DNA of 5,479 bases, taken from positions 1 through 5,479 of IMG/VR virus record IMGVR_UViG_2529293142_000013, one strand, 5' to 3'. The notes below the pieces were generated by a model. That model was not told the DNA's origin and searched no databases. It was given only the letters and a program-made list of their open reading frames with translations. This stretch comes from a virus. Its lineage: Duplodnaviria; Heunggongvirae; Uroviricota; Caudoviricetes. Positions 1 to 5,479 of this stretch are shown here, one piece after another. Position 1 is the stretch's first letter. Each line of letters opens with the position of its first letter. A program made the position numbers and the translations under genes.

Positions 1-244
1 TGCAGTCTGTCTTGGAAAGAAAAATTACGTGTTCTTCGGTAGCGATCACGGCGGCGAGCGTGGTGCACTGCTGTACGGGCTGATCGGCACCTGCCGTCTG
101 AACGGTATCGATCCGGAAGCGTATCTGCGCCATATTCTGAGCGTACTGCCGGAATGGCCCTCCAACCGTGTTGACGAACTCCTGCCATGGAACGTAGTTC
201 TCACCAATAAATAAGCGTCAATACGGTGCTCCGTTGACGCTTAC
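1..244 (+). mobile_element. Right end of an IS66-family insertion sequence (partial); terminus ...TTGACGCTTAC at 234-244
   Basis: Transposase stop at 212-214 is followed by a 9-bp inverted repeat AAGCGTCAA (213-221) / TTGACGCTT (234-242). Read inward from the end the terminus is GTAAGCG..., the start I recall for IS66-family inverted repeats. From 245 the sequence reads as the reverse complement of the lambda cII ribosome-binding region (GTAAGTATTTCCTTAGATAAC), so the junction is placed at 244|245. Confidence 0.65.
2..214 (+). CDS. IS66-family transposase (TnpC-like), C-terminal portion; 5' end lies outside the window
   Basis: Open frame runs from the window edge to TAA at 212-214. Translation ...KKNYVFFGSDHGGERGALLYGLIGTCRLNGIDPEAYLRHILSVLPEWPSNRVDELLPWNV matches the conserved C-terminal pattern of IS66-family transposases as I recall it (FxGSDxGGER...LNGxDPxAYL...ELLPW). 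Recognised from memory, not searched. Confidence 0.8.
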   Translation, partial: AVCLGKKNYVFFGSDHGGERGALLYGLIGTCRLNGIDPEAYLRHILSVLPEWPSNRVDELLPWNVVLTNK

Positions 245-321
245 GTAAGTATTTCCTTAGATAACAATTGATTGAATGTATGCAAATAAATGCATACACC
301 ATAGGTGTGGTTTATTTTGAT
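245..321 (-). terminator. tR1-like region between nutR and the (disrupted) cII start, with palindromes at 278-297 and 296-308
   Basis: Position is equivalent to lambda tR1 (rho-dependent). Palindromes GTATGCA-AATAAA-TGCATAC (278-297) and ACACC-ATA-GGTGT (296-308) are visible. Function inferred from position only. Confidence 0.4.
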
Positions 322-353
322 GCCCTTTTTCAGGGCTGGGATGTGTAAGAGCG
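322..353 (-). promoter_or_regulatory. nutR N-utilisation site: boxB 322-336, boxA 345-353 (read on - strand)
   Basis: Reverse complement of 322-336 is GCCCTGAAAAAGGGC, the lambda nutR boxB hairpin. Reverse complement of 345-353 is CGCTCTTAC, the boxA consensus. Lies immediately downstream of cro in the direction of pR transcription. Confidence 0.85.
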
Positions 354-361
354 GGAATGTC

Positions 362-1714
<1,353 letters not shown>

Positions 1715-1764
1715 TCCCCACCTCAATCTCGATAACAAAAAAACAAACTATTTTCCGTTTAAAA

Positions 1765-1832
1765 ACAATGGAGTTTGTTTTTCACGCCCCTTTTTACAAT
1801 ATTTCTTGTTTACAACATACAATCTTCCTTGT
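1765..1832. promoter_or_regulatory. 434-type left operator: OL3 1765-1778, OL2 1796-1809, OL1 1819-1832
   Basis: Three ACAA-N6-TTGT sites: ACAATGGAGTTTGT, ACAATATTTCTTGT, ACAATCTTCCTTGT. The last is the reverse complement of ACAAGGAAGATTGT, recalled as 434 OL1. They lie upstream of nutL and N. Confidence 0.85.
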
Positions 1833-1838
1833 AATTTT
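1806..1838 (+). promoter_or_regulatory. Candidate pL promoter; hexamers uncertain (best guess -35 TTTACA 1809-1814, -10 TAATTT 1832-1837)
   Basis: A promoter must lie within OL2/OL1 to drive nutL-N. The proposed pair has a 17-bp spacer but a weak -10. An alternative -10, TACAAC at 1811-1816 just upstream of OL1, cannot be excluded. Confidence 0.4.
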
Positions 1839-1877
1839 AAGCCATCAGCAGGACGCACTGACCACCATTGAAGGTGA

Positions 1878-1908
1878 GGCTCTTAAAAATTAAGCCCTGA
1901 AGAAGGGC
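1878..1908 (+). promoter_or_regulatory. nutL: boxA-like GGCTCTTAA (1878-1886) and boxB GCCCTGAAGAAGGGC (1894-1908)
   Basis: boxB is an exact 15-nt match to the lambda nutL boxB hairpin (5-bp stem, GAAGA loop). The boxA-like element lies 8 nt upstream. Confidence 0.85.
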
Positions 1909-1926
1909 AGCATTCAAAGCAGAAGG

Positions 1927-2044
1927 CTTTGGTGTGTGTGATACGAAACGAAGCATTGGCCGGAAGTGCGAATCCGGATTAGCTGCCAATGTGCCATTGC
2001 GGGGTGTTTTCGTTCAGGACTACGACTCCCACACACAACCAAAG
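1927..2044 (+). promoter_or_regulatory. Structured N leader: long-range inverted repeat CTTTGGTGTGTGTG (1927-1940) / CACACACAACCAAAG (2030-2044), plus inner hairpin CCGGA..TCCGG (1960-1977)
   Basis: Inverted repeats seen directly. Equivalent to the RNase III-sensitive stem in the lambda N leader that modulates N translation (established for lambda, inferred here). Confidence 0.6.
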
Positions 2045-2065
2045 CTAACTGACAGGAGAATCCAG

Positions 2066-2389
2066 ATGGATGCACAAACACGCCGCCGCGAACGTCGCGC
2101 AGAGAAACAGGCTCAATGGAAAGCAGCAAATCCCCTGTTGGTTGGGGTAAGCGCTAAACCAGTTAACCGCCCTATTCTCTCGCTGAATCGCAAACCGAAA
2201 TCACGAGTAGAAAGCGCACTGAATCCGATAGACCTTACGGTGCTGGCTGAATACCACGAACAGATTGAAAGCAACCTGCAACGTATTGAGCGCAAGAATC
2301 ATCGAGTTTGGTATAGCAAGCCAGGTGAGTTCGGTATAACTTGTCAAGGAAGACAAAAGGTTAAAGGGGAATCCATTCCATTGGCATGA
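2066..2389 (+). CDS. N: Antitermination protein N (107 aa), lambda type
   Basis: MDAQTRRRERRAEKQAQWKAANPLLVGVSAKPVNRPILSLNRKPKSRVESALNPIDLTVLAEY... contains the arginine-rich boxB-binding motif and matches lambda N apart from a few substitutions near the C-terminus. AGGAG at 2054-2058 precedes the ATG at 2066. The track's 1934 start is a leader extension. Confidence 0.95.
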   Translation: MDAQTRRRERRAEKQAQWKAANPLLVGVSAKPVNRPILSLNRKPKSRVESALNPIDLTVLAEYHEQIESNLQRIERKNHRVWYSKPGEFGITCQGRQKVKGESIPLA

Positions 2390-2397
2390 GGTACGTA

Positions 2398-3267
2398 ATG
2401 AAGAAGATTGATTACAAGTCCATACCAAAACCAATAGACTCAGCATCAGAGCGAAAAAAACACAAAAAAGAGGCTGAAAAATTAGCAAATTATATCAGTT
2501 TTATTAGAAACAATGCTCACGGCGATGGCGACAAGAAGTTGCTTTCAGATGCTCGGACCCAAGCGTTCGGTATACTTCGTAAGCAGATGCAATATCGTCT
2601 TCATCCTGGCTACATAATTGAAATTCGCCCTACTGAAAGACAATTGTTCTTATTAAACTCTGTCTTTGACTTTGTAAACGTAGTTGGAGATCTTATCGAC
2701 AGGTCTGTAGATAAGGATCCTGATACAAATAGTTTTCTTCTAACAAATAAAGAATACTTATATGGTAAATTCGGTATAAACGGATGGCAAAAATATGTAC
2801 GCTTCTTACGTGCATTCGTTGATGCGTATAAAAATTCCGACATGATTTATACATATTTGCCTGGTGGTGATAATTGTACGCTTTCGGCAGACAATAGAAT
2901 ATTCATACCTGTACTTGGTCTTGGGCTGATTAATGCAGTAAATGAAAAAGATGTTATAATTGTTAAGCAGTGGCGAAAATATGAGGGATATAGATATCTG
3001 CCATGCTTTGATATATTAAAAATACAGAATAAATTCTATGTAAAAATTAAATATAAAGAAGATATTTTCTTCCTCAGAAAAAACATAGATCTTTTACAAG
3101 AACTTTCTGGTACAATAGATGTCATCTTAGGTTCTAGGTTTATAAAAGAACTGAAAGAAAGCAGGTCTTTCTCTCGTGTAGAGATAAGCGAGTCAGAGTT
3201 ATGGGGTATATCAAATAATCCTGTAAACCACGCTCACCAACGAAACCCAAACAAAAAGTGGTCATAA
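2398..3267 (+). CDS. Hypothetical protein (289 aa; 293 aa if started at 2386), AT-rich cargo gene in the position of the lambda sieB-ral module; function unknown
   Basis: Long uninterrupted ORF directly after N. ATG at 2398 is preceded by GAGG (2388-2391) with a 6-nt spacer; the alternative ATG at 2386 overlaps the N stop (ATGA). G+C is visibly low (sampled stretches about 17-30 percent) against roughly half in flanking phage genes. No Walker, HTH, transmembrane or known nuclease motif seen by eye. Confidence 0.8.
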   Translation: MKKIDYKSIPKPIDSASERKKHKKEAEKLANYISFIRNNAHGDGDKKLLSDARTQAFGILRKQMQYRLHPGYIIEIRPTERQLFLLNSVFDFVNVVGDLIDRSVDKDPDTNSFLLTNKEYLYGKFGINGWQKYVRFLRAFVDAYKNSDMIYTYLPGGDNCTLSADNRIFIPVLGLGLINAVNEKDVIIVKQWRKYEGYRYLPCFDILKIQNKFYVKIKYKEDIFFLRKNIDLLQELSGTIDVILGSRFIKELKESRSFSRVEISESELWGISNNPVNHAHQRNPNKKWS

Positions 3268-3407
3268 CCCGCTCAGGCGGATTTCATTTTCACGCAAACA
3301 ACAGAATAAACACAGCGCTGTGTATTCATTCCAACGAGTGAATACACGGAGCAATGTCGCTCGTAACTAAACAGGAGCCGACTTGTTCTGATTATTGGAA
3401 ATCTTCT

Positions 3408-3436
3408 TTGCCCTCCAAGATGAGGGCGATTTTTTA
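3408..3436 (+). terminator. Intrinsic terminator candidate upstream of ea10
   Basis: Stem GCCCTC (3410-3415), loop CAAGAT, stem GAGGGC (3422-3427), extendable by two pairs, followed by a run of six T (3430-3435). Confidence 0.6.
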
Positions 3437-3455
3437 TCTGTGAGGATATGAACAG

Positions 3456-3824
3456 ATGTCAAACATCAAAAAATACATCATTGATTACGACTGGAAAGCA
3501 TCAATAGAAATTGAAATCGACCATGACGTAATGACAGAGGAAAAACTTCACCAGATTAATAATTTCTGGTCAGACTCTGAATACCGACTCAATAAACACG
3601 GCTCTGTATTAAATGCTGTATTAATCATGCTGGCGCAACATGCTCTGCTTATAGCAATTTCAAGCGACTTAAATGCATATGGTGTTGTGTGTGAGTTCGA
3701 CTGGAATGATGGAAATGGTCAGGAAGGATGGCCTCCAATGGATGGTAGTGAAGGAATAAGAATTACCGATATCGATACATCAGGAATATTTGATTCAGAT
3801 GATATGACTATCAAGGCCGCCTGA
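3456..3824 (+). CDS. ea10: Ea10 (122 aa), lambda early-left protein
   Basis: Translation MSNIKKYIIDYDWKASIEIEIDHDVMTEEKLHQINNFWSDSEYRLNKHGSVLNAVLIMLAQHALL... matches lambda Ea10 as recalled. The 369-nt length and the 72-nt spacing to cIII match lambda. Confidence 0.92.
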   Translation: MSNIKKYIIDYDWKASIEIEIDHDVMTEEKLHQINNFWSDSEYRLNKHGSVLNAVLIMLAQHALLIAISSDLNAYGVVCEFDWNDGNGQEGWPPMDGSEGIRITDIDTSGIFDSDDMTIKAA

Positions 3825-3849
3825 GCGCGGCGTTACCGCATACCAATTA

Positions 3850-3870
3850 CGCTTCACTCGAGGCGTTTTT
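3850..3870 (+). terminator. Intrinsic terminator candidate between ea10 and cIII
   Basis: Stem CGCTTC (3850-3855), loop ACTC, stem GAGGCG (3860-3865) with one G-U pair, then five T (3866-3870). Confidence 0.5.
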
Positions 3871-3896
3871 CGTTATGTATAAATAAGGAGCACACC

Positions 3897-4061
3897 ATGC
3901 AATATGCCATTGCAGGGTGGCCTGTTGCTGGCTGCCCTTCCGAATCTTTACTTGAACGAATCACCCGTAAATTACGTGACGGATGGAAACGCCTTATCGA
4001 CATACTTAATCAGCCAGGAGTCCCAAAAAATGGATCAAACAATTATGGCTATCCAGACTAA
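3897..4061 (+). CDS. cIII: CIII (54 aa), inhibitor of FtsH-mediated CII degradation
   Basis: Translation [54 protein letters not shown] matches lambda CIII. AAGGAG at 3885-3890 precedes the ATG; stop TAA at 4059-4061. Confidence 0.93.
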   Translation: MQYAIAGWPVAGCPSESLLERITRKLRDGWKRLIDILNQPGVPKNGSNNYGYPD

Positions 4062-4173
4062 ATTCACTATCGCCACTTTTATTGGCGATGAAAAGATGTT
4101 TCGTGAGGCCGTCGACGCTTATAAAAAATGGATATTAATACTGAAACTGAGATCAAGCAAAAGCATTCACTAA
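4030..4173 (+). CDS. kil: Kil (47 aa), host cell-division inhibitor
   Basis: Translation [47 protein letters not shown] matches lambda Kil. It overlaps the cIII 3' end and the gam 5' end as in lambda. The track's 3904 start is an out-of-frame overlap with cIII. Confidence 0.9.
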
Positions 4174-4544
4174 CCCCCTTTCCTGTTTTCCTAATCAGCC
4201 CGGCATTTCGCGGGCGATATTTTCACAGCTATTTCAGGAGTTCGGCCATGAACGCTTATTACATTCAGGATCGTCTTGAGGCTCAGAGCTGGGCGCGTCA
4301 CTACCAGCAGATAGCCCGTGAAGAGAAAGAGGCAGAACTGGCAGACGACATGGAAAAAGGCCTGCCCCAGCACCTGTTTGAATCGCTATGCATCGGTCAT
4401 TTGCAACGCCACGGGGCCAGCAAAAAAGCCATTACCCGTGCGTTTGATGACGATGTTGAGTTTCAGGAGCGCATGGCAGAACACATCCGGTACATGGTTG
4501 AAACCATTGCTCACCATCAGGTTGATATTGATTCAGAGGTATAA
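4128..4544 (+). CDS. gam: Gam (138-aa long form), RecBCD inhibitor; internal start at 4248 gives the 98-aa GamS form
   Basis: Translation [85 protein letters not shown]... matches lambda Gam. AGGAG at 4236-4240 precedes the internal ATG at 4248. Confidence 0.95.
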
Positions 4545-4549
4545 AACGG

Positions 4550-5335
4550 ATGAGTACAGCACTCGCAACGCTGGCAGGGAAGCTGGTTGAACGTGTCGGC
4601 ATGGATTCTGTCGACCCACAGGAACTGATCACCACTCTTCGCCAGACGGCATTTAAAGGCGATGCCAGCGATGCGCAGTTCATCGCATTGTTGATCGTCG
4701 CCAACCAGTACGGCCTTAATCCGTGGACGAAAGAAATTTACGCCTTCCCTGATAAGCAGAACGGCATCGTTCCGGTGGTGGGCGTTGATGGCTGGTCCCG
4801 CATCATCAATGAAAACCAGCAGTTTGATGGCATGGACTTTGAGCAGGACAATGAATCCTGTACATGCCGGATTTACCGCAAGGACCGTAATCATCCGATC
4901 TGCGTTACCGAATGGATGGATGAATGCCGCCGCGAACCATTCAAAACCCGCGAAGGCAGAGAAATCACGGGGCCGTGGCAGTCGCATCCTAAACGGATGT
5001 TACGGCATAAAGCTATGATTCAGTGTGCCCGTCTGGCCTTCGGATTTGCTGGTATCTATGACAAGGATGAAGCCGAGCGCATTGTCGAAAATACTGCATA
5101 CACTGCAGAACGCCAGCCGGAACGCGACATCACTCCGGTTAACGATGAAACCATGCAGGAGATTAACACTCTGCTAATCGCCCTGGATAAAACATGGGAT
5201 GACGACTTATTGCCGCTCTGTTCCCAGATATTTCGCCGCGACATTCGCGCATCGTCAGAACTGACACAGGCCGAAGCAGTGAAAGCTCTTGGATTCCTGA
5301 AACAGAAAGCCACTGAGCAGAAGGTGGCAGCATGA
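4550..5335 (+). CDS. bet: Bet (Red-beta, 261 aa), single-strand annealing recombinase
   Basis: Translation [99 protein letters not shown]... matches lambda Bet almost exactly as recalled. GAGG precedes the ATG at 4550. Confidence 0.97.
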
Positions 5336-5479
5336 CACCGGACATTATCCAGCAGCGTACCGGGATCGACGTGAGAGCTGTCGAACAGGGGGATGATGCG
5401 TGGCACAAATTACGGCTCGGCGTCATCACAGCTTCAGAAGTTCATAACGTAATAGCAAAACCCGCCCGGAAAAAAGCGG
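5332..5479 (+). CDS. exo: Exo (lambda exonuclease / Red-alpha), N-terminal portion; 3' end lies outside the window
   Basis: ATG at 5332 overlaps the bet stop (ATGA). Translation [44 protein letters not shown]... matches the lambda Exo N-terminus. Confidence 0.9.

Follow-up and report, generated by a model that had tools for sequence, protein, structure and literature searches.

A Nun-tailed protein with a predicted TnpB/Cas12-type lobe in the early operon of a lambdoid phage, a candidate polymerase-arrest factor

Nun is the textbook phage protein that stops a rival's transcription; it is an established superinfection-exclusion protein, that of HK022, and has so far been seen as a small, boxB-binding peculiarity of that phage. 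Structural work on the Nun-elongation complex showed that the C-terminal segment of HK022 Nun wedges into the RNA polymerase cleft, where residues between N97 and S109 make polar contacts, and that H93 and R94 contact the upstream DNA duplex, the substitution R94A weakening binding (Kang 2017). Lambda N traverses the hybrid cavity of RNA polymerase (PMC9378689).

We describe a gene in a stretch of Caudoviricetes DNA of 5,479 nucleotides (IMG/VR record IMGVR_UViG_2529293142_000013, positions 1 to 5,479; hereafter the window) in which the Nun arrest peptide appears as a portable module, joined to a much larger and quite different putative recognition domain. The 870-nt gene probably starts at 2398 and encodes 289 aa. 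Its protein-coding sequence is 99.9% identical to gp48 of the classical laboratory phage 434 (OL657226.1, CDS UMO75312.1), labelled "Nun C-terminal peptide-containing protein" in GenBank and still "hypothetical protein" in RefSeq. A chance ORF is excluded by the full-length match to PHROG 12139, a function-unassigned phage family (E 8e-206, ORF residues 5-293 aligning with profile positions 1-289 of 289), by the occurrence of the gene in about 2% of complete E. coli genomes (93 of 5426), and by purifying selection on it among six lineages. An earlier note, made from the letters of this DNA, had given the ORF as 2386-3267 with a 289-aa product; ORF and place are real, but the longest ORF there has 293 codons, and 289 aa follow from a start at ATG 2398, where the homologues begin and where both the 434 GenBank record and PGAP set the start. 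ATG 2386 overlaps the N stop codon (ATGA). The Shine-Dalgarno sequence for ATG 2398, with its GAGG core at 2388-2391, also overlaps the N stop codon, a layout suggestive of translational coupling between the two genes. The AT-richness that the note saw relative to neighbouring genes is real: the ORF has 34.6% GC (GC3 30%), against 44.6% for the whole window, 48.8% for N and 52.2% for bet. The features of the early operon are as follows, with pL and nutL coordinates carried over from the 434 annotation (offset 615) and the boxB hairpin also detected by scan.

1831-1909, + strand: pL -10 (1831-1836), transcript start (about 1844) and nutL boxB hairpin (1894-1908), from the 434 annotation
2066-2389, + strand: lambda-type N antiterminator gene, just upstream in the same transcription unit (Pfam N36, E 1.8e-26; 434 annotation)
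2386-2397, + strand: four codons that the longest ORF adds in frame, probably not the used start (sequence)
2388-2392, + strand: Shine-Dalgarno GAGGT, 5-6 nt 5' of ATG 2398 (sequence; ribosome-binding site in the 434 record)
2398-3267, + strand: long-form Nun-like coding sequence, equivalent of 434 gp48, 289 aa, stop included (ORF list; OL657226.1; PHROG 12139)
3222-3435, + strand: DNA block common to the nun-bearing phages HK75, mEpX1 and PA28, covering tail codons and downstream non-coding sequence (DNA comparison)
3268-3291, + strand: weak hairpin and T-rich run just 3' of the stop, CCCGC-TCAG-GCGG-ATTTCATTTTC (sequence)
3408-3437, + strand: intrinsic terminator downstream of the long-form gene and upstream of ea10 (scan; 434-record annotation)

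The gene replaces a segment of lambda, as the note had proposed in describing a cassette in lambda-like surroundings. Lambda homology (92.4% identity) ends at 2379, 10 nt short of the N stop, and restarts at 3296, just beyond the point where lambda ral ends, to continue through gam at 98.3% identity; positions 2380-3295 therefore stand in for the lambda segment with sieB, orf28 and ral (34065-35046). The non-coding stretch 3' of the gene, put at about 190 bp, is 188 bp long (3268-3455). From the tail codons through this non-coding DNA the window is 94-96% identical to HK75, and from 3296 on the shared block is also found in lambda and many Stx phages. As homology to nun-phage DNA starts inside the ORF, we considered that the Nun tail might be an accident of a recombination junction; this was rejected, since the tail persists under strong constraint in divergent lineages.

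Scanning revealed neither promoter nor terminator between N and the gene, and the upstream sequence within N has no promoter-like site, so the gene looks co-transcribed with N from pL; the presumption that 150 bp of native upstream sequence would carry its own promoter was not supported. Further upstream, between hex and N, no + strand terminator is predicted. The gene directly follows an N-type antiterminator gene in five of six lineages, and a repressor gene in the sixth (L067). All six have a terminator-like hairpin 3' of the stop codon, which is clearer in the other five than in the window. Apart from these terminators, the six lineages share no conserved non-coding sequence on either side of the gene, and the only RNA family that Rfam places near it is the cIII thermosensor further downstream. 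The context is a lambdoid early operon rather than that of a transposon with an adjacent guide RNA. Lambda has no such gene in the same operon.

The protein itself divides into a basic extension, a folded lobe and a disordered end, encoded as follows.

2398-2607, + strand: residues 1-70, basic N-terminal extension (pI 10.1), predicted helical hairpin (model, charge, alignments)
2608-3057, + strand: residues 71-220, predicted TnpB/Cas12-type REC lobe
3058-3171, + strand: residues 221-258, two helices after the WED barrel (model)
3172-3222, + strand: residues 259-275, acidic disordered linker (pLDDT below 50; alignment)
3223-3264, + strand: residues 276-289, C-terminal tail identical to the last 14 residues of Nun, HK022 V96-S109 (PHROG 5632, 6ALG, HK75 Nun)

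The tail, VNHAHQRNPNKKWS, matches PHROG 5632 (Nun) at E 7e-5 and accounts for the only PDB sequence match of the protein (6ALG chain N, E 1.6e-5); the identity also holds in comparison with the HK75 Nun translation. In HK022 numbering, it retains the contact residues N97, H98, H100, Q101, R102, K106, K107, W108 and the terminal S109. The preceding H93 and R94 are not kept, their places being taken by N273 and N274, and these positions also vary in short Nun-like proteins (e.g. FK, NH, YR). Every long form found retains the tail, including those from Pantoea, Erwinia and Morganella at 36-68% identity, in which the changes are conservative; its retention reaches down to lineages of 36-47% identity. 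Across the six lineages it is the most constrained segment of the protein, with pN/pS of 0.11 against 0.40-0.52 elsewhere; synonymous sites are saturated (pS 0.83), and pN alone is 0.09 against 0.34-0.44. The same tail is found on many short proteins (79-123 aa) with varied arginine-rich heads in phages of Enterobacterales, indicating that a tail with an exchangeable targeting head is the rule in this family. A scan of species-representative genomes returned short Nun forms and two chance matches, and no long form.

The head is predicted to contain a lobe of the kind found in TnpB and Cas12. An AlphaFold model built on a 30-sequence alignment (pLDDT 82.6, pTM 0.77; a three-sequence version at pLDDT 44.7 was discarded) places strand 1 at residues 72-77, four REC helices at 80-145 and the strands of a WED beta-barrel, flanked by a helix, at 152-217, so that the REC helical domain interrupts a WED OB-barrel between its strands 1 and 2. 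Profile alignment with hhalign against ten real TnpB N-termini gave P 8.2e-5 and a score of 34.3 over 140 colinear columns, compared with a best score of 15.1 among 30 column shuffles and one reversal. Foldseek matches, which serve as supporting evidence only, were weak (best E 0.048 against PDB and 0.0095 against BFVD), and those at the top weakly include Cas12f-type proteins and a mimivirus "transposase". The note could place the protein in no family by eye; it can be assigned by its Nun tail and this WED and REC lobe. The GenBank 434 record already flags the tail. Pfam (TnpB models included), NCBIfam and PADLOC gave no match to the protein, Pfam on all 30 family members gave noise, and a PDB sequence-profile search gave one spurious 25-residue peptide.

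The nuclease part of a TnpB is missing. According to the model and Pfam, the RuvC domain with its D-E-D triad is absent, two helices and a disordered tail following residue 220, and there is no zinc-finger target-nucleic-acid-binding domain, the whole protein having two cysteines. A stretch resembling RuvC-I by eye, GTIDV at residues 238-242, was rejected as a remnant since it is helical in the model and its aspartate is not conserved. The N-terminal hairpin is present solely in long Nun-tailed forms. It contains a basic helix, SERKKHKKEAEKLANY, in a stretch that differs between lineages and is unconserved among long forms; the match to the Nun profile covered the tail only. The acidic linker holds the end of a conserved S-F-S-R-V-E-I-S-E-S motif that is common to distant relatives of the head.

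We lean towards the view that gp48 arrests polymerase in the manner of Nun and is directed by a nucleic-acid-binding head derived from TnpB, probably against competing phages, on the grounds of sequence, predicted fold and operon position. The head would dock on a particular RNA or DNA feature near a transcribing RNA polymerase, translocation would halt as it does with Nun, and a competitor, most probably a phage that superinfects or is co-resident, would have its transcription blocked. Elongation complexes of the phage itself that are loaded with N may escape, with N filling the hybrid cavity. Like nun in HK022-like phages, the gene would belong to the pL transcript ahead of the first terminator, here together with N. 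For the exclusion factor guessed at in the earlier note, the arrest peptide offers independent sequence support. Several points weigh against the favoured reading: Nun's target cannot be that of the long-form protein, as 434 carries a lambda-type boxB (1894-1908); exclusion by a prophage needs expression under repression, for which this gene lacks a promoter-like site; H93 and R94 are both replaced by asparagine, where R94A weakened the binding of Nun (Kang 2017); and none of the 5027 models in PADLOC-DB 2.0 matches the window protein.

Other readings share parts of this evidence. The protein might instead shut off host and competitor transcription in general, acting on any RNA polymerase unprotected by N and, as an immediate-early product made with N, redirecting the cell to phage transcription, with a head that adds affinity and not specificity. 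We regard this as unlikely, though it deserves some weight: co-transcription and translational coupling with N ahead of the first terminator, N-to-gene synteny in five of the six lineages, the non-specific and toxic arrest of host polymerase by over-expressed Nun (Kang 2017), and the occupation of the hybrid cavity by N (PMC9378689) are all consistent with it. Lineage L067, where no N gene lies upstream, is not; an affinity tag would also need less than a conserved, folded 220-residue head, and the variable basic stretch suggests diversifying specificity. The tight linkage to N before the first terminator, together with the competition of Nun and N on the same nut RNA (Kang 2017), could also point to self-regulation of the pL operon. 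Acting in competition with N, or after it, on transcripts of the phage itself, the protein would then be a timing or lysis-lysogeny brake on early leftward transcription. This seems improbable, as the N-terminal basic segment has no significant similarity to the arginine-rich motif of N or Nun and, by eye, does not track the neighbouring N types, as lambda manages without such a gene in the same operon, and as L067 lacks N.

It is less probable still that the tail is incidental and the head alone functional, for example as a DNA-binding regulator or an anti-defence decoy of related proteins in BREX-like cassettes. Distant relatives of the head without the Nun tail, some of them encoded between BrxC and PglX (three clusters), and the position of the tail at a mosaic junction with nun-phage DNA would agree with such a role; the retention of the tail in all long forms found, and its standing as the most constrained segment across lineages with saturated synonymous sites, argue against it. 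We consider RNA-guided arrest, in which a guide RNA retained by the TnpB-like lobe would direct the tail to complementary targets, very improbable. The predicted fold is of the RNA-guided TnpB/Cas12 type, and nuclease-dead TnpB relatives described in the literature serve as RNA-guided repressors, but TnpB holds its guide-RNA scaffold mainly with WED and RuvC, and RuvC is missing here. The flanks of the six lineages, conserved in their terminators only, the Rfam result near the gene, confined to the cIII thermosensor, and the DNA downstream in the window, common to phages with a short Nun, also speak against a guide.

A targeted arrest factor of the kind we favour might belong to a wider class. 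The distant relatives are unnamed proteins of 213-326 aa that end in GGLPSLGK(R/K)R. Their WED+REC-like core is homologous to that of the long form (hmmsearch E 1e-7 to 1e-16), and both have an S-x-S-R-V-D/E motif before the C-terminal peptide; they differ in the peptide itself, in lacking the N-terminal hairpin, and in not being encoded in lambdoid early operons. PADLOC-DB 2.0 gave no match for eight of them. The same head with another conserved peptide (GGLPSLGKRR) in other bacteria, BREX-like cassettes included, might point to a modular class of head plus effector peptide. We tentatively raise the possibility, in which we place limited confidence, that a TnpB REC lobe without its nuclease was recruited as the targeting head of an RNA polymerase-jamming peptide, and that gp48 is the first tractable member of a "TnpB-head plus effector-peptide" class active in conflicts between mobile elements, its head recognising, by sequence or structure, DNA or RNA close to the elongation complex. 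Should the head indeed derive from TnpB, it would represent an exaptation of an RNA-guided nuclease scaffold with the recognition lobe alone kept. A recognition-lobe-only TnpB derivative was found neither by keyword in a TnpB survey nor in a literature search, and the latter gave nothing relevant on TnpB with Nun or HK022, on a 434 genome paper or on the GGLPSLGK motif.

With this tail and this head, the gene is probably a new form of a known phage-exclusion weapon. The possible immunity of N-loaded complexes to a co-expressed arrest factor may be a design principle, and the hypothesis is open to direct testing with existing Nun assays, Nun-resistant rpoC alleles and phage 434 genetics.

The long form agrees with HK022 Nun in its last 14 residues, including those from N97 to S109 with contacts to polymerase, RNA and DNA, in an acidic stretch before the tail, and in being encoded ahead of a terminator in the first transcription unit of pL (434 and HK75 annotations). 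It differs in size (289 aa against 109-112 aa for Nun and about 80-125 aa for the family), in the loss of H93 and R94, in having a basic hairpin and predicted WED+REC lobe in place of the arginine-rich boxB-binding head, and in following N, where nun stands in place of N in HK022-like phages. Lambda sieB, orf28 and ral occupy the same slot between N and ea10, which holds exclusion or anti-restriction accessory genes, and the long-form protein has no sequence or family similarity to any of them. With TnpB and Cas12 proteins (ISDra2 TnpB, 8H1J; RdCas12n, 9UDI; Cas12f) it shares, in its model, an OB-type WED barrel into which four REC helices are inserted between strands 1 and 2, and the colinear motifs L-x-P-x3-Q-x3-L-x3-F-G at strand 1/helix 1 and P-x2-LG-(L/w) in the barrel; unlike them it has no RuvC, zinc-finger TNB, TnpA, transposon ends or recognisable guide RNA. 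TldR and other nuclease-dead TnpB derivatives put a TnpB-derived nucleic-acid-recognition scaffold at the service of transcription instead of DNA cleavage, as the long form may. In the TldR type the RuvC fold is still there, though inactivated, as is the guide RNA, and the proteins act as roadblocks to initiation or elongation, whereas in the long-form protein the whole nuclease lobe is gone and a peptide of the kind that inserts into RNA polymerase is attached.

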